64,000 nt of DNA from Sedimentisphaerales bacterium (GTDB lineage: Bacteria; Planctomycetota; Phycisphaerae; Sedimentisphaerales; UBA12454): positions 654,477-718,476 of the forward strand of contig JBEKRK010000001.1 of the NCBI GenBank assembly GCA_049518795.1. The letters are read 5' to 3'. The position numbers and the translations under genes were made by a program. Below the pieces are notes generated by a model, which saw nothing but the letters and a program-made list of their open reading frames with translations, was not told where the DNA came from and made no database searches. Shown piece after piece: positions 5,300 to 52,475 of the stretch. Numbering within the stretch: the stretch's first letter is position 1; every line of letters starts with the position of its first letter.

Positions 5300-5309
5300 G
5301 GAAATATGA

Positions 5310-5420
5310 ATCCCGCACCTTCTAAATATTCAATTCGGAGGTATGGGATGGTCCTTAAGAATTTAAAGATTTACATAAAAACACATAAAAATTAAAAATG
5401 AATTAAAGAAGGTGCGGGAT
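5310..5420. repeat. inverted-repeat cassette A (111 nt, 14 bp perfect arms) between carB and carA
   Basis: 5310-5323 atcccgcaccttct is the exact reverse complement of 5407-5420 agaaggtgcgggat. Confidence 0.9.
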
Positions 5421-6549
5421 GAAAGGCATATTACTACTCGAAGATGGAACCTGTTTTAAAGGCTGCGGATTCGGAGCCGAAGGCAAAAAGTGCGGCGAAG
5501 TCGTCTTTAATACCGCTATGACCGGCTATCAGGAAATCCTTACAGACCCTTCCTATCACGAACAGATTGTAACTATGACCTATCCTTTAATAGGAAACTA
5601 CGGCACAAATCTGCTCGATGTTGAATCCAATAAACCTTTCCTGAGCGGTTTTGTTGTAAAGGAAAACTGCAATTTTCCAAGCAACTGGAGAAACGACTTA
5701 TCGCTTGATGAATATCTTAAAAAATATAATATCCCCGCTATTGAGGACATCGACACCAGAAAATTGGTTATGCTCCTGCGTCAAACCGGTGCGATGAGAG
5801 GGATTATCTGCACAGATGGAACAAGTATCAAAGAGCTGAAAGGCGAACTTGATAAATACCCCGGCCTTGTTGACAGAGACATTGTGAAAAACGTCTGCAC
5901 AAAAAAGAGCTATATTTGGGACAAACCCGTCGAAAATGAATTCGGCCAGGCTGTCCGACCACAGGCTAAATATAACGTTATAGCCTTTGATTACGGCATA
6001 AAGCAGAATATACTGCGGCTTTTAGTTTCGCACGGCTGTAAAGTTACAGTTGTTCCGCCGCAGACGACCGCTGAGGAAATACTTAAGCAAAAACCCGACG
6101 GCGTATTTTTGAGCAACGGCCCCGGCGACCCCGGTCCTATAAGTTATGCAATCGAAACGATACACAGACTGCTCGGCAAAGTGCCGATATTCGGGATTTG
6201 CCTGGGACATCAGCTTTTGGGTCTTGCAATCGGCGGCAAAAGTTTCAAACTAAAATTCGGCCATCACGGCGCAAACCATCCAGTCAAGAATCTTATTACC
6301 GAGAAAATCGAAATTACCAGTCAGAACCACGGCTTTTGCATCGACCCGGATTCGATTTTAGATAAAGACGTGCAGATTACACATATAAATCTCAATGACA
6401 ACACACTGGAAGGTTTCCGCTGCAAAAATGCCCCTGCTTTTGCCGTTCAATATCACCCCGAAGCATCGCCCGGCCCGCACGATTCTAACTACCTGTTCGA
6501 CGAATTTATCGAACTGATGAATCCCGTTAGAAATCACCTATTGAGATAA
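5419..6549 (+). CDS. carA: carbamoyl-phosphate synthase small (glutaminase) subunit
   Basis: 376 aa. Class-I glutamine amidotransferase motif GICLGHQLL, plus HGANHPV and YHPEASPGPHD. Confidence 0.95.
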   Translation: MKGILLLEDGTCFKGCGFGAEGKKCGEVVFNTAMTGYQEILTDPSYHEQIVTMTYPLIGNYGTNLLDVESNKPFLSGFVVKENCNFPSNWRNDLSLDEYLKKYNIPAIEDIDTRKLVMLLRQTGAMRGIICTDGTSIKELKGELDKYPGLVDRDIVKNVCTKKSYIWDKPVENEFGQAVRPQAKYNVIAFDYGIKQNILRLLVSHGCKVTVVPPQTTAEEILKQKPDGVFLSNGPGDPGPISYAIETIHRLLGKVPIFGICLGHQLLGLAIGGKSFKLKFGHHGANHPVKNLITEKIEITSQNHGFCIDPDSILDKDVQITHINLNDNTLEGFRCKNAPAFAVQYHPEASPGPHDSNYLFDEFIELMNPVRNHLLR

Positions 6550-6620
6550 AATTTAAGGGATAGCTTCTTTTCGAAATATTGTTGCAAAAGGGTTATAATT
6601 GGAAAGATTTCTAACGGGAT
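6521..6620. repeat. inverted-repeat cassette B (100 nt, 15 bp perfect arms) spanning the carA 3' end
   Basis: 6521-6535 atcccgttagaaatc is the exact reverse complement of 6606-6620 gatttctaacgggat. Confidence 0.9.
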
Positions 6621-6702
6621 GAACAAAGAATCGAGAAAATAACAGGATTCTGCGTTCAGGAGATTTGTTGCAATCAATATCTAAAACGATTACTATGAGG
6701 GA

Positions 6703-7416
6703 ATGGGCGAACAGATAAAGCAACAAAAAAGAAGACTGCCAAAAGCAGGAACTATCGAGGTCGCGCCATCAGTTCTAAGCGCGGATTTCGCAAATCTTGC
6801 CGCTGAAATCGCGGATATCGAAAAGGCAGGCGTGAAAATAGTCCACCTCGACGTGATGGACGGCCATTTCGTGCCGAACATAACCTTTGGCCCCCCTGTT
6901 ATTGAAAAGCTGCGAAAATACTCGAACCTCGTTTTCGACGCCCATTTAATGATAAGCGAGCCGGAAAGATACGCCGATGATTTTATAAAGGCAGGCGTTG
7001 ACCATATCACCTTCCATATAGAAGTAGTGCCAAACCCAACAGACTTTATCAAAAAACTCCACGGTTCCGGCATTACGGCAGGATTGTGTCTTAATCCAGA
7101 AACGCCGGTATCGAAAATCGAAAAATACGCTTCACTGGCGGATATGATTCTTGTAATGACGGTCCATCCGGGGTTTGGAGGTCAGCATTTCATTCAGGAC
7201 GCTGCTGAGAAAATAAAGCCTATTCGTCAAATAGTCGGACCGAATATCCGCATTGAGGTTGACGGCGGAATCGACCCGGATACCACTCCTATTGTTACCT
7301 CTCTTGGAGCAGATACGCTCGTAGCAGGCAATGCAATATTCTCAAAGCCCAATCGCGCTGCGGCTATTGAAGCAATCCGAAAAGCTTGTAAACCCCCACA
7401 CCTATTTATATTATGA
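6703..7416 (+). CDS. rpe: ribulose-phosphate 3-epimerase
   Basis: PSVLSADFANL, HLDVMDGHFVPN and VDGGI motifs. SD gaggga lies upstream of the ATG. The last 8 codons lie inside inverted-repeat cassette D. Confidence 0.93.
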   Translation: MGEQIKQQKRRLPKAGTIEVAPSVLSADFANLAAEIADIEKAGVKIVHLDVMDGHFVPNITFGPPVIEKLRKYSNLVFDAHLMISEPERYADDFIKAGVDHITFHIEVVPNPTDFIKKLHGSGITAGLCLNPETPVSKIEKYASLADMILVMTVHPGFGGQHFIQDAAEKIKPIRQIVGPNIRIEVDGGIDPDTTPIVTSLGADTLVAGNAIFSKPNRAAAIEAIRKACKPPHLFIL

Positions 7417-7496
7417 CGTCAAAATGGAAGAAATACCCAAAATTACTTTGGCCGGCTTTAAAAAAAACACAACCAAAGGATAAATAGGTGTGGGGG
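7393..7496. repeat. inverted-repeat cassette D (104 nt, 17 bp perfect arms) spanning the rpe 3' end
   Basis: 7393-7409 cccccacacctatttat is the exact reverse complement of 7480-7496 ataaataggtgtggggg. Confidence 0.9.
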
Positions 7497-7526
7497 TAAA
7501 TAACACTCGATTTTTACAAACAATTC

Positions 7527-7535
7527 TGATATAAT
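7527..7535 (+). promoter_or_regulatory. extended -10 promoter element (TGaTATAAT) upstream of accD
   Basis: TG at 7527-7528 and TATAAT at 7530-7535. No good -35. Confidence 0.4.
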
Positions 7536-7551
7536 CTCCCCTGCTTTAACA

Positions 7552-8424
7552 ATGAGTATGATTAAAACTATGGCTAAAAAACCAAAAGCAAGCTGGGACG
7601 GCTTTAGTCTAAAGCCAAGAAAAGAGATGCCGGAAGGCCTGTGGCTCAAATGCCCCGGATGCGGGAAAACTCTCTTCAAAAAGTCTGTTACAGAAAATAT
7701 GGATGTCTGTCCAGAATGTAACTATCATTTTCGTATTGGAGCAGGCAAAAGGCTCAAATACCTCGTTGACGAAGGCTCCTTTGAAGAGATGCTGGCTGAT
7801 ATGGTTACGGCTGACCCGCTGGATTTCCAATTTCGCGGGACTTCATATAAAGAACGTGCAAAGGAGGCTGAAAAGGCTGCGGCAGGCAAAGAGGCAATGC
7901 TTATCGGCAAGGCATTTATAAAGGGAAGGCCGTTGATGCTCGCTGTAATGGATTTCGACTACTTAGGCGGTTCAATGGGTGCTGTTGTGGGCGAAAAATT
8001 GAGCGTCGCTATTGAAAAGGCAATAGAAGATTCACTGCCTCTTGTTGTAGTAAGCTCGACAGGCGGGGCAAGAATGCACGAAGGCGTTGTTTCGCTTGGT
8101 CAAATGGCAAAGACCAGCGCGGCACTGGCCAAATTAGACGATAGCGGTGGTCTTTTTATATCGGTTTTGACAGACCCGACTACTGGCGGAGTTACGGCAA
8201 GCTATGCGATGTTAGGAGATGTTATTATCGCTGAACCCGGCGCGTTAATAGGTTTTGCCGGGCCGCGAACAATATATGAGACAATTAAGGTCGCATTGCC
8301 TAAAGGTTTTCAAAGGGCTGAATTCCTGCTCGAACACGGCTTTGTCGATTCGATTGTCCACCGCAAAGACTTAAGAAGCGAGATAGCCCGCCTGATAGAC
8401 TACTGCGGTAAAAATCCAACGTAA
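7552..8424 (+). CDS. accD: acetyl-CoA carboxylase carboxyltransferase beta subunit
   Basis: N-terminal Zn ribbon CPGCGKTL...CPECNYH followed by a carboxyltransferase domain (GGSMG, GGARMHEG). Confidence 0.93.
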   Translation: MSMIKTMAKKPKASWDGFSLKPRKEMPEGLWLKCPGCGKTLFKKSVTENMDVCPECNYHFRIGAGKRLKYLVDEGSFEEMLADMVTADPLDFQFRGTSYKERAKEAEKAAAGKEAMLIGKAFIKGRPLMLAVMDFDYLGGSMGAVVGEKLSVAIEKAIEDSLPLVVVSSTGGARMHEGVVSLGQMAKTSAALAKLDDSGGLFISVLTDPTTGGVTASYAMLGDVIIAEPGALIGFAGPRTIYETIKVALPKGFQRAEFLLEHGFVDSIVHRKDLRSEIARLIDYCGKNPT

Positions 8425-8434
8425 AAATCATACT

Positions 8435-8462
8435 TTGCAATCCACATTTTTCTGCGTATAAT
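8435..8462 (+). promoter_or_regulatory. sigma70-type promoter TTGCAA-N16-TATAAT directly upstream of hisC (near-leaderless)
   Basis: -35 at 8435-8440 and -10 at 8457-8462. The hisC ATG is at 8473 with no SD in between. Confidence 0.55.
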
Positions 8463-8472
8463 CCAAACCATT

Positions 8473-9531
8473 ATGGGTTATTTCCGTGAAAATATCGAAA
8501 AAATGGCAGGCTATGAGCCGGGATTTCAGCCAAAAGAAGCCGATGTAGTCAAGCTCAATACCAATGAAAATCCATACCCGCCAAGTCCAAAAGCAATCGA
8601 AACAATAAGGAATATAAACCCAGACCAGCTAAGAAGATACCCTCAGTCAATGGCCGATACCTTCAGAGAGGCTGTTGCTGAAATTTTAGACGTTGAATGC
8701 GAAAATATTATCTGCACCAACGGCGGCGATGAATTATTAAATATGACAATCAGGGCTTGTTGCGATGAAAACCGGCCGCTTGCGTATCCGACGCCGAGCT
8801 ATACGCTTTATCCAGTGCTGGCTCAAATCGCAAATGCCCCTGTAATTGAAATTCCATTCGACAGCGAATTTAATCTGCCTGCGAAACTCGCTTCAAGCGG
8901 CGCGGCATTGACAATCGTCTGCAATCCAAACGCACCAAGCGGAACATTCACACCAAAAGAAGAACTGGCGCAGCTTGCCGAGGAATTAAAAGGACTGCTT
9001 CTGATTGATGAGGCTTATGTAGATTTCGCAGAGGACAACTGCCTTGAGCTTGTCCAAAAATTCGACAATGTGATTATCCTCCGCTCGATGAGCAAGGGCT
9101 ATTCGCTGGCAGGACTTCGATTCGGGTTCGGCATAGCAAACGAAAAAATAATTAAAGGTCTTGAAAAGGTAAAAGATTCTTATAATGCAGATGCTGTTTC
9201 AATAGCGGCAGCCACAGCGGCAATACAAGACCAGCAGTATTTTAAAAATAATGTTCAGAAAATAAAAATTGAAAGAAAATTCCTGACTGAAAAATTAACG
9301 GAATTAGGTTTTGAGGTGCCTGCCAGCCAGGCAAATTTCGTATTCGCAAAGCCTGCGAAAATCAGGGCTATCGATGTCTATGGGAAACTTAAGGACAGAA
9401 ATATATATGTCCGATACTGGGCTTATCCGGATATAAACGATAAGCTCAGAATTACAGTCGGAACAGGTGAGCAAAATGAAAAACTCATAGGCGCATTAAA
9501 AGAAATCGTAACCGCGGATTTCACAGATTAA
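8473..9531 (+). CDS. hisC: histidinol-phosphate aminotransferase
   Basis: 352 aa class-II aminotransferase: LNTNENPYPPSP, and SMSKGYSLAGLRFG with the PLP lysine. Confidence 0.9.
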   Translation: MGYFRENIEKMAGYEPGFQPKEADVVKLNTNENPYPPSPKAIETIRNINPDQLRRYPQSMADTFREAVAEILDVECENIICTNGGDELLNMTIRACCDENRPLAYPTPSYTLYPVLAQIANAPVIEIPFDSEFNLPAKLASSGAALTIVCNPNAPSGTFTPKEELAQLAEELKGLLLIDEAYVDFAEDNCLELVQKFDNVIILRSMSKGYSLAGLRFGFGIANEKIIKGLEKVKDSYNADAVSIAAATAAIQDQQYFKNNVQKIKIERKFLTEKLTELGFEVPASQANFVFAKPAKIRAIDVYGKLKDRNIYVRYWAYPDINDKLRITVGTGEQNEKLIGALKEIVTADFTD

Positions 9532-9716
9532 CGCGGATTAAATTTGTCTATGTTTTGTGTCTTGCCTGCCCCAGCAAGTTTTTGGCAGGGGTTTCTTACG
9601 AAAAATGTTCTTAGCAACCACCAATCTATGAGTTTTTCGGCTATCTTGGACACCAACTTTGGAATATTTTAAAAAAATTCAATACGGATTCTCGCCATCT
9701 CGCCACGAAAAAATTG

Positions 9717-9745
9717 TTGACTCCTTCATTATTCAATAATATAAT
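9717..9745 (+). promoter_or_regulatory. consensus sigma70 promoter TTGACT-N17-TATAAT for the hisC/hisB insert
   Basis: -35 at 9717-9722 and -10 at 9740-9745, about 50 nt upstream of the ATG at 9795. Confidence 0.65.
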
Positions 9746-9794
9746 ACTTATTCAAAGCCGGAAGAAGGAATTTTGTATCGTAAGGGAAATAAGT

Positions 9795-10265
9795 ATGGCG
9801 TCTCCTGAATTCCAGAAAGACCGTAATATGTCGAGGAACTTATCAGCAAGTCGATCAGACGCAATACAAATCATTGTTTTTACGTTTATCTTGGTGGTCA
9901 TTGCATTTTTTGTTCACTTGAAGTACGGTCCTTTCTTTGTGCAAGTCATATGGGTCGATCGGATTCTTTTTGTCTGCTTTGGGGTTCTACTGGGAGAGAA
10001 TTCCTCACGTTTTGAGTGGCTCCATAGAAAGAAAAGGCAGGGTGTTCTACCGTCGGAGACAATGAGTCTCATGCAGAATCTTGAGGTTAAATTAGTTGCC
10101 TACTGTATTAGTGGCTATATACTCTATAAGGTGCTTGGTTTGACAATTGGTCAAGGCAAAGCGCTCTTAGTTGGGCTTATTCTGACGTTTGGATTAGTTC
10201 GGTGGGAGCTTAAGCGAATTTTCAGCACCATACCGAACTCCAAAAATATGGGGAAAAAGGAGTGA
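9795..10265 (+). CDS. hypothetical polytopic membrane protein (about 4 TM), first gene of the hisC/hisB insert
   Basis: Long ORF with hydrophobic segments. I chose the ATG at 9795 (SD-like aaggga upstream) because a consensus promoter lies inside the longer 9714 ORF call. Confidence 0.5.
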   Translation: MASPEFQKDRNMSRNLSASRSDAIQIIVFTFILVVIAFFVHLKYGPFFVQVIWVDRILFVCFGVLLGENSSRFEWLHRKKRQGVLPSETMSLMQNLEVKLVAYCISGYILYKVLGLTIGQGKALLVGLILTFGLVRWELKRIFSTIPNSKNMGKKE

Positions 10266-10694
10266 ATGAATGTGGAGAACCGAGTGATTTTAATTGCCGC
10301 AGCTCTCAGTGCATTATATTTCGGCGTGCAGTTTTTACGCATTTTGCCGATTTCTCTGCGTCTTGTTCAGGCATTGTGGATAGGTAAGGTTCGTTGGCCA
10401 GGGTCTCCGACTCACGATCCAGATTCCAGAATAAGACTGGCAGAACAGTGGCTATGTAGTCCGCCACAATACCTCTTTCCATCCTTTTTCAAGCATGCAT
10501 TGGGCGTCTTGGCTGCCTTTGTACTATCCACCATAATCACTTTGAATTATTTCTTCTTCTGGCTTGTTCCCTTACCCGGAAGGGACTGGATTGTATTTGG
10601 ACTTCTGCTATTTGCTGTCGTTATTGGTGGGTGTTTATATCTCAAGCGAGCCCTATACTATTTGCAGATCATTAAAACAATGTTATCAGAGTAA
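10266..10694 (+). CDS. hypothetical membrane protein (about 3 TM)
   Basis: Its ATG directly abuts the stop of the previous gene (tgaATG). Three hydrophobic helices; no recognisable motif. Confidence 0.5.
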   Translation: MNVENRVILIAAALSALYFGVQFLRILPISLRLVQALWIGKVRWPGSPTHDPDSRIRLAEQWLCSPPQYLFPSFFKHALGVLAAFVLSTIITLNYFFFWLVPLPGRDWIVFGLLLFAVVIGGCLYLKRALYYLQIIKTMLSE

Positions 10695-10709
10695 TAGGAG
10701 AATAAAAGA

Positions 10710-11420
10710 ATGGATAATGCAATTGATTCTAAGATTCTCGAAAAAGTTATGGAATCGCCACTAGTTGTTGACGACTTATGGCAAGCAAAACATGGTACTC
10801 CACAAGACCCGCACGGATTGAATGCATGCCTTCGTTTAGACAAACTTCTAGGTGGCACGGGAAAACCAGACAGTGATATTGCCATCGAATTAAGCTATAA
10901 TGCTGGTAATTATATAGATTTTCTTATGACGCCTGATGAATATCCTGAACATTTGAAAATGAAGGCCGACCGCGAATTCCAACCATTTGGAAAAGAACCG
11001 GAGTGGATAATTCCACAGGGCTTTCATAAGGATGGATGGTTTTGGGCTTCTTTCGATAAGTTAGTCAATAAGCAAATACAAGCTAAACTTAGGAGCCGAT
11101 TTTCTATGGCTTTAATAGCTATTGATAAACCAGCTCGAACCAGATATATATATCCTTGGCAACAGGCCGTCAGCGCCAATCATACATTAGCGGTTTGGAA
11201 CCCTTCGACTTTAGAGCCGATATTTATGAGAATTTCTTCATGTTATATTAAGATTAGGCACACAAAAGCTTACCAAGTACATTATAGCCAGCAAGGCCGT
11301 GAATGTATTAAAGTCCCGATTTTAATTAAACCTGGTTTTGAACAGATGTTTACGTTTCAGACAATTCTCTCAGGTGAAGAAAAAACTGTGTTTGACGCTT
11401 TTATATCAAATCTGGCATGA
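10710..11420 (+). CDS. hypothetical soluble protein, 236 aa, no recognisable domain
   Basis: Intact ORF 15 nt after the previous gene. Codon choices (cca, ggt, cta) look different from the flanking his genes. Confidence 0.55.
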   Translation: MDNAIDSKILEKVMESPLVVDDLWQAKHGTPQDPHGLNACLRLDKLLGGTGKPDSDIAIELSYNAGNYIDFLMTPDEYPEHLKMKADREFQPFGKEPEWIIPQGFHKDGWFWASFDKLVNKQIQAKLRSRFSMALIAIDKPARTRYIYPWQQAVSANHTLAVWNPSTLEPIFMRISSCYIKIRHTKAYQVHYSQQGRECIKVPILIKPGFEQMFTFQTILSGEEKTVFDAFISNLA

Positions 11421-11643
11421 ATTGCCGCAGATATGATATTTGGTTACCTTATGAAGAAGTGTCCTATAACCATAAGCTGACTGAAGCATAAGAAAACCTT
11501 ATCCCGTAATAATCAAACCGAATGTCCCATATTTTTAATTCGTCGCTTGTGTTGTGAATCTTGCGCCTTTTTGCGCTGAAAAAAATTCGTGCAATCCGCG
11601 AAATCTGCGGTTAAAATAAGCAAAACTTGATAAGGATACCTTT

Positions 11644-12228
11644 ATGAAAGAAAGAATCGCAAAAATAACGAGAAAAACAAAAGAAACGGACATCAGCGTT
11701 CAAATCAACCTCGACGGCGAAGGCAAATATGAAATAGATAGCGGCATAGGCTTTTTAGACCATATGCTCTGCCATCTGAGCAAACACAGCAAGATAGATT
11801 TGGTCCTTAAAGCAAAAGGCGACCTTGAAGTTGACCAGCATCACACGGTCGAAGATGTAGCGATATGCTTAGGAGAGGTGATTATCGAGGCGCTCGGCGA
11901 TAAAAAAGGCATCGCCCGCTATGGCAACAGCTCTGTGCCGATGGAAGATGCACTTGCGAATGTCGCTGTTGACCTTTCAGGCAGACCTTTCTGCGTTTAC
12001 AACGTGCAGTATAGAACGGAAAAGGTCGGCGATTTCGATGTCGAGTGCGTTGAGGAGCTACTGAGAAGTTTCTCAAATCACGGAAAGTTCAACCTGCATA
12101 TAACCGTGCCGCACGGCACAAACAGTCATCATATCGCTGAGGCAGTATTCAAGGCATTGGGACAGGCATTAGGACAGGCTGTTAAAATCAGCGGCAAGGA
12201 TATTCCAAGCACAAAGGGTTCGCTGTGA
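11644..12228 (+). CDS. hisB: imidazoleglycerol-phosphate dehydratase
   Basis: RKTKETDI, GFLDHML, DQHHTVED and NSHHIAEA motifs. Confidence 0.93.
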   Translation: MKERIAKITRKTKETDISVQINLDGEGKYEIDSGIGFLDHMLCHLSKHSKIDLVLKAKGDLEVDQHHTVEDVAICLGEVIIEALGDKKGIARYGNSSVPMEDALANVAVDLSGRPFCVYNVQYRTEKVGDFDVECVEELLRSFSNHGKFNLHITVPHGTNSHHIAEAVFKALGQALGQAVKISGKDIPSTKGSL

Positions 12229-12737
12229 ACGGCGATATAAACTACGAATATAGAACGGGTATCGGAACTGATATTCACCGCCTTGTTGAAGGCAGAGAGC
12301 TGAAACTTGGCGGCATAGCTGTTCCCTTTGAAAAAGGATTGCTCGCCCATAGCGACGGCGATGTCGCGCTGCACGCTTTGATAGATGCAATCCTCGGAGC
12401 AGCAGGGCTTGGCGATATAGGAACAATTTTCCCCGATAGCGACCCGCAGTTTAAAGATATAGACAGCAAGGAACTCGTCCTGAAAATCAAAGACTATATA
12501 GCCTCAAAAAACTGGGAAGTTGTAAACGCAGATATAACGATTACCGCTGAAGAACCAAACCTTGGGCCGTATAAAGCGCAAATGAAAAGATGTATTGCCA
12601 GCCTTTTGGGAATCGATTTTCTAAACGTAAATGTAAAAGCGAAAACAAACGAGGGTTTAGGTGATATAGGAACAGGGTTAGCAATATCAGCGATAGCTAC
12701 AGTATTATTAAGAAGAAGAATAAAAAGAACATTATAA
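12225..12737 (+). CDS. ispF: 2-C-methyl-D-erythritol 2,4-cyclodiphosphate synthase
   Basis: GTDIHRL, HSDGDVALHAL and GDIG motifs. Overlaps the hisB stop by 4 nt. Confidence 0.92.
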   Translation: MNGDINYEYRTGIGTDIHRLVEGRELKLGGIAVPFEKGLLAHSDGDVALHALIDAILGAAGLGDIGTIFPDSDPQFKDIDSKELVLKIKDYIASKNWEVVNADITITAEEPNLGPYKAQMKRCIASLLGIDFLNVNVKAKTNEGLGDIGTGLAISAIATVLLRRRIKRTL

Positions 12738-14167: not shown

Positions 14168-14676
14168 TGAAGATTCTCGGCATAGACCCCGGCTTGCAGG
14201 TTTGCGGATATGCCGTGATTGAAGCCGACAGAAACCAATTTAAACTTCTTGAAGCAGGCGTTTGCAGGACAAACTCGAAATTACCGATTGAGAAAAGATT
14301 ATTGCAGATAGTACAGGATATAAATTCGCTGATTGAAAAATTTAGGCCGGCCTGCGTCGCGGTTGAGGATTTGTATTCTCATTATGCCCATCCGAAAACA
14401 GCGATATTGATGGGGCACGCAAGAGGCGTTATACTTGCACAGGCCTGCAAAGACGGAACAGACGTCAAGAGTTTCGCCGCGACAAGAATTAAAAAATCGC
14501 TGACTGGCAACGGCAGAGCATCTAAATTGCAGATGCAAAGGAGTATAAAAAGTCTCCTCGGTCTTGCAAAGATGCCTGAACCGGCAGATGTCGCCGATGC
14601 GATTGCGACGGCGATTTGCTGTGCCAACTCACTTGATAACAAGGGTATCTATCGCCTGATGAAAGGGCTGCTATGA
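14167..14676 (+). CDS. ruvC: crossover junction endodeoxyribonuclease RuvC
   Basis: Opens ILGIDPGL, followed by an RNase-H-like fold pattern. 169 aa. Confidence 0.9.
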   Translation: MKILGIDPGLQVCGYAVIEADRNQFKLLEAGVCRTNSKLPIEKRLLQIVQDINSLIEKFRPACVAVEDLYSHYAHPKTAILMGHARGVILAQACKDGTDVKSFAATRIKKSLTGNGRASKLQMQRSIKSLLGLAKMPEPADVADAIATAICCANSLDNKGIYRLMKGLL

Positions 14677-15854: not shown

Positions 15855-15863
15855 TAGCTGATT

Positions 15864-16493: not shown

Positions 16494-16496
16494 AAA

Positions 16497-17531: not shown

Positions 17532-17553
17532 AAATAAAAACAATCTAAAGGGA

Positions 17554-18519: not shown

Positions 18520-18528
18520 CGGACAATT

Positions 18529-42328: not shown

Positions 42329-42329
42329 T

Positions 42330-43736: not shown

Positions 43737-43747
43737 TGAACCTGACC

Positions 43748-45841: not shown

Positions 45842-46980
45842 TCTTTGACCTCATTTCTCGCCCATTGGTCGGCTGAAAGCAATTCTTCCAGCGTCGCATT
45901 TGTTTTAACCTTATGTCTATCAAGACAATACTTAATAAGTTCGACTATCTTAACAAATTTTATTTTACCTTCCAGAAATTCTTTAACAGCTGTCTCATTT
46001 GACGCATTAAAGACCGCAGCAGCCGTGCCGCCGATTTTTGCCACCTCGTAACCGATTTTTAAGGCATTAAAGACCTCCATATTCGGCTTTTCAAAGGTTA
46101 GCCGGCCAATTTCTTCAAGCCGCAAATGTTTTGTCCTACTTTTTACTCGTTTCGGAAATGTCAGGGCATACTGTATCGGCAAACACATATCCGGCTCGGA
46201 CATTTGTGCAATAATTGAGCCATCGATGAATTCCACCATCGAATGAATAATGGATTCCGGATGAACAAGAACCTCAATTTTTTCTGCCGGCACGTCAAAA
46301 AGCCACTTTGCTTCGATTACTTCTAATGCTTTGTTCATCATTGTTGCAGAATCTATAGTGATTTTTTTGCCCATATTCCACGTCGGATGAGCTAATGCCT
46401 GCTCAATCGTTACATTCCTCATCTGCTCAGCGGTAATTCCTCTTAGCGGGCCCCCGCTTGCCGTCAGGATAATCCTGTTTATTTCTTTGGGATTTCCCGC
46501 CTGCAAAGCCTGAAAAATAGCCGAATGTTCGCTGTCAACCGGTAATATTTTTGCGTTATTTTCCTTCGCAATTTTCGTCAGCAGTTCGCCGGCAATAACT
46601 AACGGCTCTTTATTCGCAATGGCAAGGGTCTTTCCAGCCTTTGCCGCCGACAAAATTGCTTCGAGTCCTGCGGCGCCGACAATCGCCGCTATGACTATAT
46701 CCACATTTTCATTTGAAGCTGCTGCTGCAAGTTCTTTTTCGCCGCAAAGTATCTCGGTTTCGCTGCCTCTCACCAAAGTCTTAAATTCATCATACTTTTG
46801 TGGATTTGTAACTACCGCTATTTTCGGCTTAAATCTTTTAACCTGTTCCGCAAGCAATTTGACGTTATTATGAGCGCTAAGAACGGCCACCTCGAAATCC
46901 GCGCCGAGCGCTTCTATAACTCGAAGGGCATTTGTGCCTATCGAGCCTGTCGAACCAAGTATCGCTATTTTTTTCATCAT
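45820..46980 (-). CDS. dxr: 1-deoxy-D-xylulose 5-phosphate reductoisomerase
   Basis: ILGSTGSIG, LANKE, and PVDSEHSAIFQ motifs. Confidence 0.95.
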   Translation of the reverse strand: MMKKIAILGSTGSIGTNALRVIEALGADFEVAVLSAHNNVKLLAEQVKRFKPKIAVVTNPQKYDEFKTLVRGSETEILCGEKELAAAASNENVDIVIAAIVGAAGLEAILSAAKAGKTLAIANKEPLVIAGELLTKIAKENNAKILPVDSEHSAIFQALQAGNPKEINRIILTASGGPLRGITAEQMRNVTIEQALAHPTWNMGKKITIDSATMMNKALEVIEAKWLFDVPAEKIEVLVHPESIIHSMVEFIDGSIIAQMSEPDMCLPIQYALTFPKRVKSRTKHLRLEEIGRLTFEKPNMEVFNALKIGYEVAKIGGTAAAVFNASNETAVKEFLEGKIKFVKIVELIKYCLDRHKVKTNATLEELLSADQWARNEVKECLKRKV

Positions 46981-47020
46981 ATACTAATTATTAATACTTT
47001 GTGTCTTCGTGCCTTCGTGG

Positions 47021-48307
47021 CTACCGTCGTCTATTCATTTCCCGAAATTGTCTCGGCGGCACGCCGACTAATTCCTTAAACGTCCGTGTAAAATAACTCT
47101 GGTTATTATAGCCGGATTCGAAGCAGATTTCAGTGCAGTTTTTATTTGTGGAAATTAAAAGCGCCTTTGCGTGTTCAACGCGAACATTCGTCAGGTAATC
47201 TATTATTGTAAGTTCCGTCTGCTCCTTGAAAATATGACTGAGCCTTGAAACGCTCAAATGGGCAGCCCTGGCAATCTCTTCAAGAGAAAGCTGCTCTTTA
47301 TAATGCTGCTGAATATAGTCCGTCGCGGGTTTTATTTGTGAGACTCTTTTCTTGTCCTGTGCGGAATAAACAAGCTCAATAAAGTCGTTTAAAGCGTTTC
47401 CTATCCAGATGCACAAATCCTGCTGGTTGTCAATCTGCATCGCTTTATTGATATATTCGAGGTTTTTTTTGAGAAGGAAGTCAGCATCAGCTCCGCCTTC
47501 TACCGCGCTTCTACTGAGGATGCTCAAAAGTTCAAGCATCCTTGCTCTCAGCACTGCCAAATCTCCAGGGTCTTTAAGCATAATACTCGCAAGAATCATA
47601 TTGAGGATTTCTCTTGCTCCGATTCGGTCGCCGATTTTGACCTTGCCCATCAGTTGCTTTTCAGCCTCAATCGGGTATTGGCCTGCTCCGCTTTCTTCTT
47701 TATGTTCTCTAATGAATTCGCCGATTTCTGACTGCTGCTGACTTATTTGTCCGCGCCGCTGTATAACATTATGGTCGAGACCTGTCTTTTTATAAACGGT
47801 TGCAAACAGAAATTCGGCTGCATCGTGAACTTTTCTCCCCGGCACAATCGGCAGTTTTTTTATGGCCCGCAGCAGTTTTGCATTGTCTATATTTAACGAT
47901 TGTAATCGTTTATTTATGTCTTCAATTAGTATCGCATCCGGCTCATCCGGCCTGCCTCGACTTGCCGGCAAGGCGGGCAGGCATTTGCCGAAAAATATTC
48001 CGCCCAAAGGTTTGTCTTTGTCCATCACAGGTATACAGGCAAGCACAATTCCTGCGTGACAAATTGTTATATAAGGCTGGCCTGTTTCAAAAGCCATTTT
48101 GAGGCTTTTCAGTCTCTCCTGCCGGCAGCGTTTCAAACCTGTGGAATTTTTGCGGACAATTTTACAAAACTCAGGATGGCAGTCCCTGCTGCATACTTGA
48201 GTAATCTCTTTACCATAAGCATCAGTCGCCTCAAGAGCCATTTTGAAGCTGTCGCGAAAGCCGTCTTCTATTTCCGTAAGAGTCTTTTTTGTAAATAACG
48301 TTGGCAT
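47021..48307 (-). CDS. AraC-family transcriptional regulator with a Cys-rich PocR-like N-terminal sensor domain
   Basis: C-terminal HTH_AraC region (LSLEEIARAAHLSVSRLSHIFKE ... GYNNQSYFTRTFKE). The N-terminus carries C..HPEFC ... C motifs as in PocR domains. Confidence 0.8.
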   Translation of the reverse strand: MPTLFTKKTLTEIEDGFRDSFKMALEATDAYGKEITQVCSRDCHPEFCKIVRKNSTGLKRCRQERLKSLKMAFETGQPYITICHAGIVLACIPVMDKDKPLGGIFFGKCLPALPASRGRPDEPDAILIEDINKRLQSLNIDNAKLLRAIKKLPIVPGRKVHDAAEFLFATVYKKTGLDHNVIQRRGQISQQQSEIGEFIREHKEESGAGQYPIEAEKQLMGKVKIGDRIGAREILNMILASIMLKDPGDLAVLRARMLELLSILSRSAVEGGADADFLLKKNLEYINKAMQIDNQQDLCIWIGNALNDFIELVYSAQDKKRVSQIKPATDYIQQHYKEQLSLEEIARAAHLSVSRLSHIFKEQTELTIIDYLTNVRVEHAKALLISTNKNCTEICFESGYNNQSYFTRTFKELVGVPPRQFREMNRRR

Positions 48308-48330
48308 ATTGTATTGTCGGTTAATTATAC

Positions 48331-48365
48331 GCTAAAAAATAATTTTTAGCACTATTTTGCTAAAA
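48331..48365. promoter_or_regulatory. operator-like palindrome GCTAAAAA-taa-TTTTTAGC plus a third GCTAAAA half-site, in the AraC / Pta-N-like divergent region
   Basis: 48331-48350 is a perfect 8+8 palindrome. 48344-48350 tttagca pairs with 48358-48364 tgctaaa. Confidence 0.5.
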
Positions 48366-48409
48366 TTTTTATAACTACTTTAAAATTAGGAACTTACGTA
48401 ATATAAGTT

Positions 48410-48434
48410 GGTTTAGCCGTTGCCCGGTTTAGCC
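48410..48434 (+). promoter_or_regulatory. direct repeat GGTTTAGCC x2 (16 nt register)
   Basis: 48410-48418 and 48426-48434 are identical 9-mers containing the same TTTAGC core as the upstream palindrome. Confidence 0.45.
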
Positions 48435-48461
48435 ATCTCAAAGGGAGGCACGGTTGCGTTT

Positions 48462-48506
48462 CCTTACTTCCTTACTTCCTTACTTCTTTACTTCTTTACT
48501 TCTTTT
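48462..48506 (+). repeat. tandem 8-mer array (CCTTACTT x3, CTTTACTT x2, partial unit)
   Basis: Direct reading of the sequence. Pyrimidine-rich on the plus strand. Confidence 0.9.
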
Positions 48507-48540
48507 ATTAAACTGATAACTGATAACCGAGTAAATATGA

Positions 48541-48644
48541 ATCCCGTTAGACCTCTTTGATGTTTATGTTTTATAATGGTGAGAAAGTTATGCATTATTA
48601 TACAGATTTTCAAATTAATAGATTGCAGTGAGGTCTAACGGGAT
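48541..48644. repeat. inverted-repeat cassette C (104 nt, 15 bp perfect arms) on the start of the Pta-N-like gene
   Basis: 48541-48555 atcccgttagacctc is the exact reverse complement of 48630-48644 gaggtctaacgggat. Confidence 0.9.
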
Positions 48645-49743
48645 GAAACCACTTTATATTAGCGCAACCGTTCAGGATAGCGGCAAGACCGCCGTAATAT
48701 GCGGCCTGATTCAGCATTTGCGAAAACAAGGCTATAATCCCGGCTATATCAAGCCTGTCGGCCAGCGTTATGTCCAGTATGAAGGCCACAACATTGACGA
48801 AGATGCTGTGCTTGTGCATCAGGCCTTTGACTACGAGGACCACCCTTCCGATATGAGCCCAATCGCTGTTGAAGAAGGCTTCACTTCAAAATTCATTCAA
48901 AATCCCGATGTCTCCTCTCTTGAGCAGCGGATAATGAACAGTTTCAACAAACTGACACAAAAACATTCTATGATTATCGTCGAAGGCACGGGGCACGCCG
49001 GCGTTGGAAGCTGTTTTGGTCTGTCGAACGCCCGTGTCGCGCAGATGCTCGATGCAAGAGTCGTCATAGTCTCCTCCGGCGGCATCGGCAGGCCGATAGA
49101 TGAAGTATCTATGTCGCTTGCTTTATTTAAGCAATATAAGGTGGACGTTATCGGTGTCCTTTTGAATAAAATCTACCCGCAAAAATACGAAAAAATAAAC
49201 AAAATTGCGCCGAAGGGATTGGAGCTTATCGGCACAAAGCTCATCGGCCATATTCCTTACGATTCATCGCTTTCATTTTTCAGTATTGGCCAGGTAGCTG
49301 AGGAGCTTGAGTATGATGTCCTTTGCGGCCAGGAATCGCTTTCCAACAAAATCGGCCATACGGTTGTTGCAGCTATGGAGCCGCAGAACGTGCTTCGCTA
49401 CATCGAAAAAAACACCCTGATAATCACGCCCGGCGACCGTATTGACAATATATTACTCACTTTGGCATTGTCCGAATCAGTCGATTTCCACGATAAATTA
49501 TGCTCCTGTGGCCTGATTCTTACCGGCGGCTTAAAACCGGATTCGACTATTCTTTCGCTCCTTTTAAGGAGCACCCTTCCGGTGCTTCTTACTGATGAGG
49601 ACACATTTACGGTAACGGCAAAGATGAAGGATTTGCATTTTAAGATTCGTTCTAAAGACACCGACAAAATCGCCCGCACTTACGAACTCTTGCGCAACAA
49701 CGTCGATATCGATACAATTCTTAAAAGTTTGTCTGTTGATTAG
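48643..49743 (+). CDS. phosphotransacetylase N-terminal-like protein (BioD-like P-loop domain plus DRTGG domain), no Pta catalytic domain
   Basis: LYISATVQDSGKT P-loop and a later DRTGG-type region (ITPGDRID). I preferred the ATG at 48643, which has SD gaggt 8 nt upstream, over the GTG at 48628. Confidence 0.75.
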   Translation: MKPLYISATVQDSGKTAVICGLIQHLRKQGYNPGYIKPVGQRYVQYEGHNIDEDAVLVHQAFDYEDHPSDMSPIAVEEGFTSKFIQNPDVSSLEQRIMNSFNKLTQKHSMIIVEGTGHAGVGSCFGLSNARVAQMLDARVVIVSSGGIGRPIDEVSMSLALFKQYKVDVIGVLLNKIYPQKYEKINKIAPKGLELIGTKLIGHIPYDSSLSFFSIGQVAEELEYDVLCGQESLSNKIGHTVVAAMEPQNVLRYIEKNTLIITPGDRIDNILLTLALSESVDFHDKLCSCGLILTGGLKPDSTILSLLLRSTLPVLLTDEDTFTVTAKMKDLHFKIRSKDTDKIARTYELLRNNVDIDTILKSLSVD

Positions 49744-49766
49744 CCCCCACTTTCAGTGGGGGTTTT
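49744..49766 (+). terminator. rho-independent terminator of the Pta-N-like gene
   Basis: 8 bp stem cccccact/agtggggg with loop ttc, followed by tttt, immediately after the stop codon. Confidence 0.7.
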
Positions 49767-49860
49767 CCTTCGTGGTTAGCCCCGATCCCTGCGGTCGGGG
49801 GTTCTTCTCTTCGGCGTCATTGCGAGGCCGCTTCGGCTATCTCATCAGGGTCTGCCTTTT

Positions 49861-49916
49861 ATCCCCGCGATTACCTCCTCTCTTGCTTTCGCCAGAAAGC
49901 GCGGAGGTGCGGGGAT
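49861..49916. repeat. compound palindromic hairpin E1 (base ATCCCCGC/GCGGGGAT)
   Basis: Nested stems: atccccgc/gcggggat, acctcc/ggaggt, gctttc/gaaagc. Confidence 0.85.
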
Positions 49917-49926
49917 CACTATTTAC

Positions 49927-49964
49927 ATCCCCGCGCTTAGTTTCTGCAAGGAAACTGCGGGGAT
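49927..49964. repeat. palindromic hairpin E2 (same ATCCCCGC/GCGGGGAT base, different interior)
   Basis: Stems atccccgc/gcggggat and agtttc/gaaact. Overlaps the stop codon of the RF-1 domain gene. Confidence 0.85.
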
Positions 49965-50299
49965 CTCCGCCTTCTTCTGTCTTTCTGCTTCCTGATTTTT
50001 GCTATTTTTTTTGCTGCTGGGCTTTCTTTGCCTAATAATTTATTCTCCAGCAGTTCACACATTTGCTTTCTCGCATAATAACGGTTTAGTCCCTGGCTCC
50101 GGCTCTTTTGGACCTTGACTGCCAGCCCGCTGGGAATATGTTTTAAATGGACACAGGTGGAACTTTTATTGACTTTCTGCCCTCCTGCTCCGCTGCTTCG
50201 AACGAATGTTTCCTCGATATCATTCTCGAGCAGATTGCAGTTATGCATACGTTGCTCAAGCTCTTGTCTCTTCCGCTCTGTAATTCCAAAGTTAATCAT
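49937..50299 (-). CDS. RF-1 domain protein (ArfB/peptidyl-tRNA hydrolase-like, GGQ motif)
   Basis: SSGAGGQKVNKSST GGQ loop and a basic C-terminal tail. 120 aa. The last 8 codons and the stop lie inside palindromic hairpin E2. Confidence 0.75.
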   Translation of the reverse strand: MINFGITERKRQELEQRMHNCNLLENDIEETFVRSSGAGGQKVNKSSTCVHLKHIPSGLAVKVQKSRSQGLNRYYARKQMCELLENKLLGKESPAAKKIAKIRKQKDRRRRRSPQFPCRN

Positions 50300-50440
50300 A
50301 TATCTTCCCTATTCAGATTCTACTCCAACATAAATTACCGCCCTTTACTTATTTTATATTTTAAGAGCTTGTCCTGAGCGGCCTGTGGTGAGCATAGTCG
50401 AACAAAGTCGAAGGAGCTGACCCTACTTGATCCTATTTCT

Positions 50441-51481
50441 TCAATAGCCATATCTGTTTTTAATATATGATAGCCAGTCTTTCCACTTGCCGTTGGAGTC
50501 ATTCTCTCTAACCCAGCTTACAAACTGTTGGTGCGAGAAGCTTGCGAACCCAACCTTGCCTTCAAAAATGCTACCCCATCCGATTCTGAAATCATCTATT
50601 CCGGAAGATTTTAAGCAGCTTATAAGGGTTTGGTTGTCTTGGTCATACGCTACACACGATATAACAAATTCATACTTGCCTGACTGAGCAATGCCCTCTG
50701 CCAATGCCTGTTGCCGGAAAAGCTGGTAACCATTCGTAGCAGCCGGACATGTTTTGAGTGTTCGCTTTCCATTCTCAGAGACCTTAATAAAGTCCCAATA
50801 TTTCCTGTTGGTATGATTTCCAGCTTCCCATTTATTCATATAGCATGTGTCTTCTGTATTACCCAAGACCTTTTCAATATCCAGACACCTCTTAATATCC
50901 GGATTGCCATAATCGCTCTTCCGCCCCGAGCAAGGGTAGAATGAATGCTCAGTATATTTATTCTCCGTCAAGACGAGTCCTTTGCCTCCATTAACGACAA
51001 ATGCAACATCAGGCGAGGTCTGGTTTGCCCCTCTTGTCCCCTGTGGCTCCCCAAGGAGTTCAGATGGTTTCAATTTCCCGTCTTCAGCGTATTCCAACTC
51101 GATCCTATCTACAGTTTTGATTTTATTGTTTACAAATTTATTTAGAAATCCAGCCAGCATGTCCTTGTCATCTCGAAAAGAGAAATACAGATTTGCACAG
51201 AGCATCCACGAACTCTTGAGATTATGACAGCCTTTATGTCGCTGGACTCCTTCCTTGTTGAGATATTCAGGAAGAGAATCTTTTATTTCCTCCCACAACC
51301 CGTCCTTCCAGAGATTTTCGGGCAATATCCATGGCCTTTCCACACCGTTTTGTTTACCATGCTCTTGATTACCAATATGCTTTAAACGCCAATCAACCTG
51401 TCGCCTTTGAACATCTGCATCAAAATCTAACATCTTACTCTCCTGATTTTTTGGCCAGCCGGTGTGGGTATTGTTACTCAA
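50441..51481 (-). CDS. hypothetical protein with a PD-(D/E)xK nuclease-like motif
   Basis: SPDVAFVV-x9-LVLTENKYTE fits the PD...(D/E)xK beta-strand pattern. 346 aa and Cys-rich. No other recognisable domain. Confidence 0.45.
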   Translation of the reverse strand: MSNNTHTGWPKNQESKMLDFDADVQRRQVDWRLKHIGNQEHGKQNGVERPWILPENLWKDGLWEEIKDSLPEYLNKEGVQRHKGCHNLKSSWMLCANLYFSFRDDKDMLAGFLNKFVNNKIKTVDRIELEYAEDGKLKPSELLGEPQGTRGANQTSPDVAFVVNGGKGLVLTENKYTEHSFYPCSGRKSDYGNPDIKRCLDIEKVLGNTEDTCYMNKWEAGNHTNRKYWDFIKVSENGKRTLKTCPAATNGYQLFRQQALAEGIAQSGKYEFVISCVAYDQDNQTLISCLKSSGIDDFRIGWGSIFEGKVGFASFSHQQFVSWVRENDSNGKWKDWLSYIKNRYGY

Positions 51482-51496
51482 TATGGTGTCCCCAGA

Positions 51497-51973
51497 TTAT
51501 ACCCGTCTTATTAGATCCTTCATTTCTCTTCTTATCTTATTCAATTTATCTTGAAGTTCGTGATGCTTTTCAAACTTGCCTCTTGTGCCATTACCCTTTG
51601 GTCCGGCTATCCTCAAGATAACAGTTTCTATATCTTTGCTATATCGGTGCTTATCTATTACAAAAAAACTAACCTTATCCCAACGATTTTTGTGCTTATC
51701 CTTTGTATGCCAATCAACTCTACCTAATAAGTTCTGGGCAATACCAACATAATACAATTTTTTGCCTTTGTATAAAGCATAAATTCCGGAGCTATCCCCT
51801 ATTACTTCTTTATATCGTGGTAAAAGGAGCTCAAAACCTTTCCTGTCTTTTTTCTCAAGATACCCTTTTACCAAGGCGCCTTTACAACTCTGCTTGAATA
51901 TTTTTCGCTTTGTTTTCTTTCTTTTAAAACCGCTCATTTTACGCATAATGTTTTTCCTATATTTGCCTAACAT
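51497..51973 (-). CDS. GIY-YIG nuclease family protein with a basic N-terminal extension
   Basis: GIYALYKGKKLYYVGIAQNLLGRV gives GIY-x9-YVG plus the conserved Arg; downstream Glu in DIETVIL. Its stop is 15 nt upstream of the next gene's start. Confidence 0.7.
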   Translation of the reverse strand: MLGKYRKNIMRKMSGFKRKKTKRKIFKQSCKGALVKGYLEKKDRKGFELLLPRYKEVIGDSSGIYALYKGKKLYYVGIAQNLLGRVDWHTKDKHKNRWDKVSFFVIDKHRYSKDIETVILRIAGPKGNGTRGKFEKHHELQDKLNKIRREMKDLIRRV

Positions 51974-52082
51974 TGTTTATATTGATCCGCATAACATCCC
52001 AAATATCATTGCGCCACCTTAATATGGTAAATCAGGGTTTAAATCAATAAATCTGTACTAAAAACTTATCATCCCATGCTGT

Positions 52083-52190
52083 TTATGCGGAGAAACCTTC
52101 TTTCTTCATTCTCTTCGCAAGCCGTTTCTCTTTTAACGTTCTTTGTGCTTTCTTTTTTACATCTCTTTTAGCATCACGACCTTTAGACAT
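52083..52190 (-). CDS. 35-aa highly basic small protein (MSKGRDAKRDVKKKAQRTLKEKRLAKRMKKEGFSA)
   Basis: Not in the ORF track because it is under 60 aa. ATG is preceded by aggaaagga at good SD spacing, and a TTGAGT-N17-TAGAAT promoter lies upstream. Confidence 0.4.
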   Translation of the reverse strand: MSKGRDAKRDVKKKAQRTLKEKRLAKRMKKEGFSA

Positions 52191-52237
52191 ATATTATCCT
52201 TTCCTGTCTACTGAATTCTGTATTCTTTTATATCAAA

Positions 52238-52266
52238 ATTCTATCTCTTTTTCTTTTCAAACTCAA
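52238..52266 (-). promoter_or_regulatory. sigma70 promoter TTGAGT-N17-TAGAAT for the small basic protein / nuclease islet
   Basis: On the minus strand, -35 is at 52261-52266 and -10 at 52238-52243. It shares a 17-nt identical block with the promoter at 56944-56972. Confidence 0.55.
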
Positions 52267-52355
52267 CGATAAAATTTATATTTAGCCGCCGCCATTCAGG
52301 GCGGCGTTACTTCCTTCCTTTTTACTTTCTATATATTGAACGACCAAGGAATTCT

Positions 52356-52475
52356 TTTGCTTTAAGGCGTAATTGCGCAGCGGTAAAAAATTCAATTACA
52401 GACCCGTTGAAGTTTGACTTCAAAAAGGGGCTGTTTGAATTTTACAGTGTTCGCAGAACACCGCCTTAAAGCAAA
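52356..52475. repeat. inverted-repeat cassette F (120 nt, 14 bp perfect arms), intergenic upstream of fhs
   Basis: 52356-52369 tttgctttaaggcg is the exact reverse complement of 52462-52475 cgccttaaagcaaa. It also has internal sub-hairpins taattg/caatta and gaagt/acttc. Confidence 0.85.

Follow-up and report, generated by a model that had tools for sequence, protein, structure and literature searches.

Background

Bacterial MITEs, or miniature transposable elements with inverted repeats, among them the Correia elements or NEMIS of Neisseria, ERIC, RUP and MITEAba12, are small non-coding sequences that possess terminal inverted repeats, lie between copies of a duplicated target, occur as many dispersed copies whose presence varies between relatives, and can alter gene ends or gene expression. 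All of these properties are shared by a set of hairpin elements in the genome of a Sedimentisphaerales bacterium (assembly GCA_049518795.1), four of which, termed A, B, C and D, lie in or beside carA, rpe and a gene encoding an AAA_26/DRTGG protein within the 64,000 nt stretch analysed here, referred to as the window (contig JBEKRK010000001.1, positions 654,477 to 718,476). However, the ends of the hairpin elements are conserved over only ~5-10 nt, the rest of the stem covarying and the interiors being unalignable; the same ends are found in several phyla; copies that begin with T and end with A ('T...A' copies) sit exactly on start codons, which they rebuild; their orientation relative to the target is fixed; and no parent insertion sequence has been found. 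Correia elements, for instance, duplicate TA and have 26 bp repeats, whereas the hairpin elements have 4 bp direct repeats (TGAA, TAAA) and stems of 13-17 bp.

Other small repeats resemble them in part. Rickettsia palindromic elements (RPEs) are likewise palindromes of ~100 nt that are tolerated in genes and add residues to their products, as B and D do. RPEs are in-frame insertions within the genes of a single genus and are not known to follow a start codon rule, whereas the hairpin elements are found across phyla, mostly at the first codon. Integron attC sites, 57-141 nt in length, also conserve structure over sequence, have a variable central part and are read in a single orientation; by contrast, the hairpin elements have core-like motifs in the reversed order, duplicate their targets and are found in housekeeping operons, with neither cassette arrays nor an integrase. 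REPINs mobilized by RAYTs and IS200/IS605-derived sequences are similarly hairpin-forming, non-coding and inserted in an oriented manner beside a 4-5 nt motif, but they generate no target duplication, are specific to one genome and form a separate hairpin at each end, whereas the repeats flanking the present elements are variable and duplicated and each end pairs with the other. Full-text literature searches, one of them using the literal end sequence, yielded no account of elements of this kind; the coverage was incomplete, so earlier work may exist.

Two related groups of transposase generate duplications of the appropriate size. IS1380 elements are reported to have CC ends and duplications of 4-5 bp. 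Their transposases serve as the prokaryotic outgroup of piggyBac (PMC10813416), which duplicates TTAA, has CCCTAGAAAGATA ends, forms hairpin intermediates that include the flanking 4 nt and excises seamlessly (PMC7351741).

Results

Perfect inverted repeats in the window

In the window, a repeat finder located five perfect inverted repeats whose arms measure 14-18 nt and whose loops span 70-92 nt: A (5310-5323/5407-5420; arms 14 nt, loop 83 nt), B (6521-6535/6606-6620; arms 15 nt, loop 70 nt), D (7392-7409/7480-7497; arms 18 nt, loop 70 nt), C (48541-48555/48630-48644; arms 15 nt, loop 74 nt) and F (52356-52369/52462-52475; arms 14 nt, loop 92 nt). When the window was shuffled 100 times with dinucleotides preserved and searched for perfect inverted repeats with loops of 50-130 nt, the mean number was 0.08 for arms of at least 13 nt and 0.05 for arms of at least 14 nt, so the preliminary description, made from the same DNA, was right to treat five such cassettes as far beyond chance. 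All five fold 4.5-7.4 standard deviations better than shuffled sequence; in A-D the strong pairing consists of the terminal stem only. A, B and C have ATGAATCCCG...CGGGATGAA in common, and an attempted alignment bore out the statement that their AT-rich interiors cannot be aligned with one another.

The outermost base pair of each arm of A-D reported above is formed by flanking bases, not by the element. The true limits are 5311-5419 (A), 6522-6619 (B), 7393-7496 (D) and 48542-48643 (C), each surrounded by a 4 bp direct repeat. Two further inverted-repeat pairs, at 9478/9626 and 22376/22484, lacked direct repeats and lay in ordinary sequence, and a sixth candidate at 49862-49963 had only seven perfect pairs and no repeat; all three were dropped.

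Elements A to D are insertions

Elements A, B, C and D, all described here on the forward strand, are insertions. The flanking 4 bp repeats are perfect at all four, being TGAA three times and TAAA once, and excision in silico of A, B or D together with one repeat copy restores the interrupted locus. Element A (5311-5419; 109 bp, with ends TCCCGCACCTTCT...AGAAGGTGCGGGA) separates carB from carA. Its left target copy, ATGAA at 5306-5310, is the ancestral carA start codon, now opening a 29-codon upstream open reading frame (ORF), MNPAPSKYSIRRYGMVLKNLKIYIKTHKN; the element ends with A5419, which supplies the A of the ATG from which carA now starts, and the right repeat copy, TGAA, follows at 5420-5423. 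Excision leaves the carB stop codon, GGAAAT as a 6 nt spacer, and then ATGAAAGGC.

Element B (6522-6619; 98 bp, TCCCGTTAGAAATC...GATTTCTAACGGGA) lies at the other end of carA, five codons before the ancestral stop. Its left target copy, ATGAA at 6517-6521, is an internal Met-Asn codon pair, and the present carA tail, PVRNHLLR, and stop codon (6547-6549) come from the element, changing the tail from five residues to eight; the displaced ancestral tail ATGAACAAAGAATCGAGAAAATAA (MNKESRK*), which contains the right TGAA copy (6620-6623), persists at 6619-6642. Excision yields a 373-aa carA product ending ELMNKESRK. Element D (7393-7496; 104 bp, CCCCCACACCTATTTAT...ATAAATAGGTGTGGGGG), inserted one codon before the rpe stop, has its left repeat copy, TAAA, at 7389-7392, directly after G7388, and its right copy at 7497-7500, followed by the ancestral stop TAA (7501-7503). 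It provides seven further residues, PPHLFIL, and a stop codon (7414-7416), and its excision gives a 230-aa rpe product ending RKACK.

Element C (48542-48643; 102 bp, TCCCGTTAGACCTC...GAGGTCTAACGGGA) has as its left target copy the ATGAA at 48537-48541, which is the ancestral start of the AAA_26/DRTGG gene and now opens a seven-codon upstream ORF (MNPVRPL); upstream ORFs of 7-29 codons are the only coding content of these 98-109 bp elements. C ends with the A of an ATG at 48643, the right TGAA copy lies at 48644-48647, and the right arm of the element carries GAGG 9 nt upstream of this rebuilt ATG, the likelier true start of the gene. Mechanical ORF calling begins the gene at a GTG inside the right arm (48628-48645).

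Comparison with relatives shows the same junctions in other states. The closest relative (carA 94% identical) has a 6 nt carB-carA spacer and a 230-aa rpe product, and carA homologues finish ...MNKAK. In a second relative (L002, 89% identity) the carA site is empty, reading ...AAAATGAAAGGC and containing ATGAAAGGC, whereas in a third (L003, 86% identity) a different, 61 bp copy occupies the carA start as GTGAA|TCCCGTTAGAATC...GATTCTAACGGGA|TGAA. These empty and differently occupied orthologous junctions, the target duplications and the hundreds of copies found elsewhere support the MITE-like nature suggested in the preliminary description. Since the restored carA and rpe and the state of the relatives show insertion, the outer termini that A, B and C had been said to share, although present, are composed of the duplicated (A)TGAA followed by the true ends, their ATGAA part being target rather than element. 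The non-random position on gene starts and ends is likewise real, and is explained by where the elements landed and by the duplicated target, with a terminal A and the duplicated TG spelling ATG.

A superfamily found in several phyla

Further copies were sought with two pattern scans. One, for T...A copies, searched one genome per species with TCCCGTTAGA-N60-90-TCTAACGGGA and recovered at least 119 loci; the other, for copies beginning with C and ending with G ('C...G' copies), searched a metagenome collection and recovered at least 120. Together they gave more than 240 further copies, from Patescibacteria, Omnitrophota, Planctomycetota and other phyla. Judged by record title, and among the matches listed, about three quarters of the T...A loci are from Patescibacteria (Saccharibacteria, Paceibacterota and many others), and the remaining hosts include Omnitrophota, Planctomycetota, uncultured Gammaproteobacteria, Elusimicrobia, Nitrospirae, Desulfobacterota, Stahlbacteria and a Chloroflexota metagenome-assembled genome (MAG); this list may be inflated by binning errors, with at least three phyla being well represented. 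Viral contigs are nearly free of the element, with two matches in 2.9 million.

The ends are 5'-YCCCG in the lineage of A, B and C (TCCCG...CGGGA) or 5'-CCCCC in D (CCCCC...GGGGG). The arm type of A recurs in a Planctomycetaceae MAG, likewise at a gene start (L048 5852-5961), and the arm subfamily of C in other MAGs of Sedimentisphaerales, Planctomycetes and Omnitrophota, where it too lies at gene starts (L040, L047, L051, L054 and L121). D-type ends, CCCCCACACCTAT, occur in a Saccharibacteria MAG with the repeat TTAT (L061 6884-6954), and D therefore belongs to the same superfamily; C...G ends found within the T...A loci are CCCCGTTAGAAATT, CCCCGCACCTTCT and CCCCGCCC. The five loci of the window are thus not the one family that they had been taken for: A, B and C form one lineage, D represents a sister lineage, and F could be linked to neither. 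It is probable that A-D are mobile insertions of a widespread MITE-like superfamily of non-coding DNA hairpins, 60-120 bp in length, with the duplication, orientation and start codon properties described below.

Several variant arrangements were noted. Copies elsewhere are 45-121 bp long, with lengths clustering near 80 bp and at 96-108 bp and shorter forms of 45-71 bp; helical periodicity is not evident in these lengths, the range of which is bounded by the search patterns. A 45 bp mini-copy, TCCCATTAGAAATC...GATTTCTAACGGGA, with one arm mismatch (L048 4521-4565) indicates that very short forms exist. Composite arrangements (L136 615-800, L029 ~1440-1640 and L061 ~6130-6364) comprise two head-to-head copies with one common TGAA, a copy nested in a CCCCGTTAGAAAA...TTTTCTAACGGGG copy, and a degenerate copy immediately upstream of an intact one. 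A search of ~1.7 Mb of flanking sequence for autonomous partners, in the form of identical ends separated by 300-4000 bp, yielded only pairs of separate small elements or noise. A 1.2 kb unit in a Sungiibacteriota MAG (L096 1-1179), with inverted repeats of 32 and 59 nt and a 314-codon ORF, is probably an unrelated insertion sequence.

Target sites and the rebuilding of start codons

The flanking repeats are 4 bp, typified by T-R-A-A (TGAA, TAAA) and mostly of the form TNNA (TGAA, TAAA, TTGA, TGGA, TGTA), and TTAA is never required. Perfect 4 bp repeats flank 77 of 123 T...A copies, as TGAA/TTCA (44), TGAG (9), TGGA (8) or other single-base variants, and an A precedes the repeat in all 44 instances of TGAA. 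TG adjoins the terminal A, so as to form ATG, in 107 of the 123 copies, and an ORF of at least 60 codons begins at 102 of these ATGs; where the repeats are intact, the upstream frame from the ancestral start closes after a median of five codons, and only four of 64 sites look internal to a gene. Among ATGAA sites in the T...A loci, those occupied were 45 start-like and three intragenic ones, as against none of 255 that were non-coding-like. As TGAA sites outside genes outnumber NTGAA gene starts by ~8:1, a preference for the word ATGAA combined with the loss of gene-breaking insertions is not a full explanation.

The C...G copies have 4 bp repeats in 69 of 126 cases, including TAAA/TTTA (36), TGAA (18) and TTGA (7). 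These copies prefer GTAAA and are mostly intergenic: a G precedes the repeat in 30 of the 36 at TAAA, and these sites are mostly non-coding. Where they lie at TGAA, the left flank is ATG in eleven cases, GTG in three and TTG in one, which is the order of start codon usage, and the rebuilt start is GTG.

Lineages with T...A ends are almost restricted to start codons of the ATGAA type, and the presence of T...A copies on true start codons follows from the re-creation of ATG by the terminal A and the duplicated TG. A target A|TGAA becomes ATGAA-element-A+TGAA; the element is thus followed at once by an intact ATG, and the gene is not lost. Residence at start codons may combine a target preference with the survival of harmless insertions. 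The old ATG would meanwhile start a short upstream ORF running into the left arm, and its ribosomes might melt the hairpin that buries the new ATG, allowing expression to continue.

Stems conserved as structures

The terminal inverted repeat consists of a common 13 bp stem, perfect over 13-17 bp, enclosing an AT-rich, copy-specific interior; 122 of 131 interiors are singletons. At stem positions 11, 12 and 13, which were left free by the search pattern, 93%, 94% and 90% of 120 distinct copies have Watson-Crick pairs, with all four pair types represented, against 42-50% after partners were shuffled. Positions 14-15 are paired in about half of copies, and pairing is at chance level from position 16 onward. 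The earlier observation that arms differ yet stay complementary thus extends to independent copies in other genomes. The accompanying suggestion of selection on an RNA hairpin fares less well: mismatches in the stem are mostly transitions, and on the sense strand G:U is not favoured over A:C (8 versus 6), so nothing specifically indicates RNA. Searches against Rfam gave no match at the gathering threshold or at E-values up to 1, the only others being far-below-threshold matches to miRNA-like hairpins.

Discussion

Orientation and the mobilizing enzyme

With the asymmetric repeat (TGAA or TAAA) as reference, copies with similar interiors agree in orientation in 80 of 80 pairs. One subfamily, CCCCGTTAGAAATTCC...ATTATTTCTAACGGGG, has inserted independently ~11 times at (G)TAAA, always in one sense. 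Both orientations would be expected from a symmetric transpososome that acts on a perfect 13 bp inverted repeat, and the fixed orientation is therefore the strongest hint of an unusual mechanism.

The elements would be moved in trans by an enzyme encoded elsewhere. The most likely kind, put forward tentatively on the strength of a resemblance, is a transposase making a 4 bp staggered cut, as do those of piggyBac and IS1380. The duplication in each case is of 4 bp, starts with T and ends with A (TTAA in piggyBac; TGAA, TAAA or TTGA here), and the short terminal repeats begin CCC (CCCTAGAAAGATA in piggyBac; YCCCGTTAGAAAT in the hairpin elements). The piggyBac target is, however, palindromic and its insertion unoriented, unlike that of the hairpin elements, which argues against a simple piggyBac-like version, and no transposase of this type was found near any hairpin copy.

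A number of observations weigh against the account of A-D as members of a MITE-like superfamily mobilized in this way. About 40% of copies have no perfect repeat. In the repeat-bearing copies, the fifth flanking base matches the last base of the element in 132 of 160, which leaves the duplication readable as 4 or 5 bp; a strict 5 bp duplication, favoured elsewhere, is contradicted by the C...G copies at ATGAA sites. In a minor class, represented among T...A as well as C...G copies, the left flank is (A)CTTG and the right flank TGAA, so that only TG is repeated (L027 4812, L029 1532, L061 6262, L066 5101, L076 2013, L167 7474, L196 1830 and L244 1839). The fixed orientation on a non-palindromic target is unlike what a symmetric DDE transpososome predicts, and the ends are common to the subfamilies of one genome over only ~5 nt. 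As the preliminary description had stated, the window holds no transposase: comparison of 50 of its ORFs with Pfam found no transposase or recombinase besides RuvABC, the genes being housekeeping, cell-envelope or defence-like. Nor was an autonomous partner or transposase found in ~1.7 Mb around the other copies. Copies heading an ORF make up 102 of 123 in the T...A sample but 25 of 126 in the C...G sample, a comparison that host taxa may confound, the two samples coming from different collections. Lastly, openness of the upstream ORFs does not differ between the sense strand and the antisense strand, which speaks against selection to keep them open and bears on the proposed translational coupling.

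Several of these points would suit a different enzyme. The elements could be mobile not through a classical cut-and-paste DDE transposase but through an enzyme that recognises a folded hairpin in single-stranded form, together with a short, asymmetric target, and inserts the element in one orientation. Such an enzyme could be of the HUH/Y1 type, or a recombinase working as integron integrases do on attC, and the element could then carry some of the flanking repeat along with it. We regard this as possible but doubtful. It would account for the 80 of 80 fixed orientations, including the repeated insertions of one subfamily at (G)TAAA, for stems kept as covarying structures and not as sequences, and for arm types of one genome having only ~5 terminal nucleotides in common; it also fits the fifth flanking base following the terminal base of the element, the many imperfect repeat pairs found beside perfect arms, and the failure to find a transposase in the window or in the flanking loci searched. 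Against it, repeats vary within a subfamily yet are identical on both sides of each copy (TGAA, TGAG, TGGA, TGCA, TAAA, TTGA), which is the pattern of a staggered cut and is unlike IS200/IS605 or REP elements. C...G copies at start codons, moreover, read ATGAA on the left and GTGAA on the right, such that the repeat is not simply carried along. As with transposases, no HUH or recombinase gene was linked to the elements.

Regulation, relatives of known repeats and artefact

Alternatively, the hairpins may be mainly host regulatory modules retained by selection at start codons, where the hairpin would hide the ATG and ribosome-binding site until opened by an upstream ORF or an alternative hairpin, and mobility would explain only their arrival. 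Some features would fit such modules. Occupied ATGAA sites include 45 start-like ones and none of the 255 non-coding-like ones, and some arm types have GAGG or GGAG 9-12 nt before the ATG. In the conserved right arm a TAA precedes the ATG by 4 nt, and a TGA arises where ATGA overlaps; 25 of 77 upstream ORFs end at one or other of these. An internal CGGGA able to pair with the left end is present in 17 of 107 gene-oriented copies, always gene-distal, the mirror image occurring once, which gives the interior a polarity, and fold energies are 4.5-6.5 standard deviations below those of shuffled sequence. However, close relatives differ in the presence of an element at a housekeeping gene, B and D lie at gene ends, C...G copies are mostly intergenic, and mismatches in the stem do not favour G:U in the sense direction. 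Outward promoters offer no better basis: TATAAT-like hexamers are equally common in both orientations, and promoter-like hits in A-D are no more numerous than AT-richness gives. Overall, this explanation seems unlikely.

It is very unlikely that the elements are REP or REPIN palindromes spread by a RAYT, or palindrome-associated elements derived from IS200/IS605. Hairpins of ~100 nt that are non-coding and inserted in one orientation beside a short motif would fit, but the direct repeats are duplicated and differ among copies of an arm subfamily, neither arm is a palindrome in itself, there is no conserved GTAG-type head, most copies extend over a gene start instead of being intergenic, the same ends recur across phyla whereas REP families are specific to a genome, and the 64 kb window encodes no Y1 transposase. 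Still less probable is an origin as integron attC sites or empty gene cassettes, with carA and rpe as the cassettes: the length of 60-120 nt, the paired ends around variable centres and the GTTAGA/TCTAAC motifs recall attC core sites, yet the order is GTTAGA...TCTAAC on both strands, the reverse of the attC arrangement RYYYAAC...GTTRRRY, element A has no such motif, 4 bp duplications flank the elements, carB and carA remain adjacent in relatives that have no element, and no integrase is encoded in the window. That the elements are chance inverted repeats or assembly artefacts can be virtually discounted, for while every source is a metagenome assembly, five were observed against 0.05 expected, the locus recurs in independent assemblies, and hundreds of copies from many studies have consistent flanks.

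What the elements may represent

Relative to described repeats, what appears to be new here is the combination of MITE-like elements with covarying ends, spread across phyla, self-repair of the ATG at start codons and oriented insertion. A more far-reaching proposal, which we consider speculative, is that the hairpins constitute a class for which no description was found, recognised by shape and not by sequence, homing in a fixed orientation to ATGAA or T-R-A-A in many phyla, including the small genomes of Patescibacteria, moved by an enzyme other than a classical symmetric DDE transposase, and acting at start codons as translational switches in which an upstream ORF is coupled to a hairpin concealing the start. 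If the account of A-D as members of a mobile superfamily is right, one kind of tiny mobile element would have colonised the first codon of hundreds of genes, from Patescibacteria to Omnitrophota to Planctomycetota, and the start codon, being rebuilt by the element, would be a safe harbour for selfish DNA in compact genomes. Annotation errors, in the form of wrong starts, false N-terminal extensions and altered C-termini such as those of carA and rpe, would be accounted for. Fixed orientation, covarying stems and the absence of a known transposase would together make these elements a test case for the mobilization of short hairpins, and the succession of upstream ORF, hairpin and ATG would be a candidate for translational control in uncultured bacteria, the regulation of which is barely known.

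Element F and other features of the window

Element F (52356-52475, strand not assigned) is a 120 nt near-complete hairpin in the spacer upstream of fhs, with a fold energy of -50.7 kcal/mol (z = -7.4). It differs in kind from A-D in being paired over nearly its whole length and in having no clear direct repeat. No related sequence was found in 1.7 Mb of loci, and the spacers upstream of fhs in relatives are too diverged to align or for an empty site to be called. F may represent another kind of mobile hairpin, or a feature of a different nature.

Closer to fhs, the ~130 nt directly upstream of the gene (~52700-52830) are conserved in relatives, at ~260-387 in L246 and at ~2370-2500 in L247 and L249, including TAGCA[CG]AATAGTTCAAAAAAA..., whereas the rest of the spacer is not. 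This segment, which has no Rfam match, could be a promoter or leader element. Several fhs homologues (P0169-P0173, P0180, P0190, P0193 and P0211) are called at 609-615 aa instead of 587 aa, and the longer calls may be N-terminal over-extensions of the kind that hairpin elements would cause.

The window contains no tRNAs. The motif CTTACTTCCTTAC occurs on the forward strand in short tandem arrays at 48463-48499, 52648-52660 and 60703-60731, giving seven matches against 0.14 expected; each array lies upstream of a forward-strand gene, these being the AAA_26/DRTGG gene, fhs and a T2SSE ATPase gene. Following the AAA_26/DRTGG gene, a GC-rich cluster of small hairpins (49743-49970) includes repeated ATCCCCGCG...GCGGGGAT units and terminator-like stems. 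Genes of defence- or homing-like character, identified with Pfam, lie near element F on the reverse strand (50441-51481, 55739-56482 and 57026-57607), encoding a REase-ARP/PD-(D/E)XK nuclease, an FRG-domain protein and an HNH_3 endonuclease.

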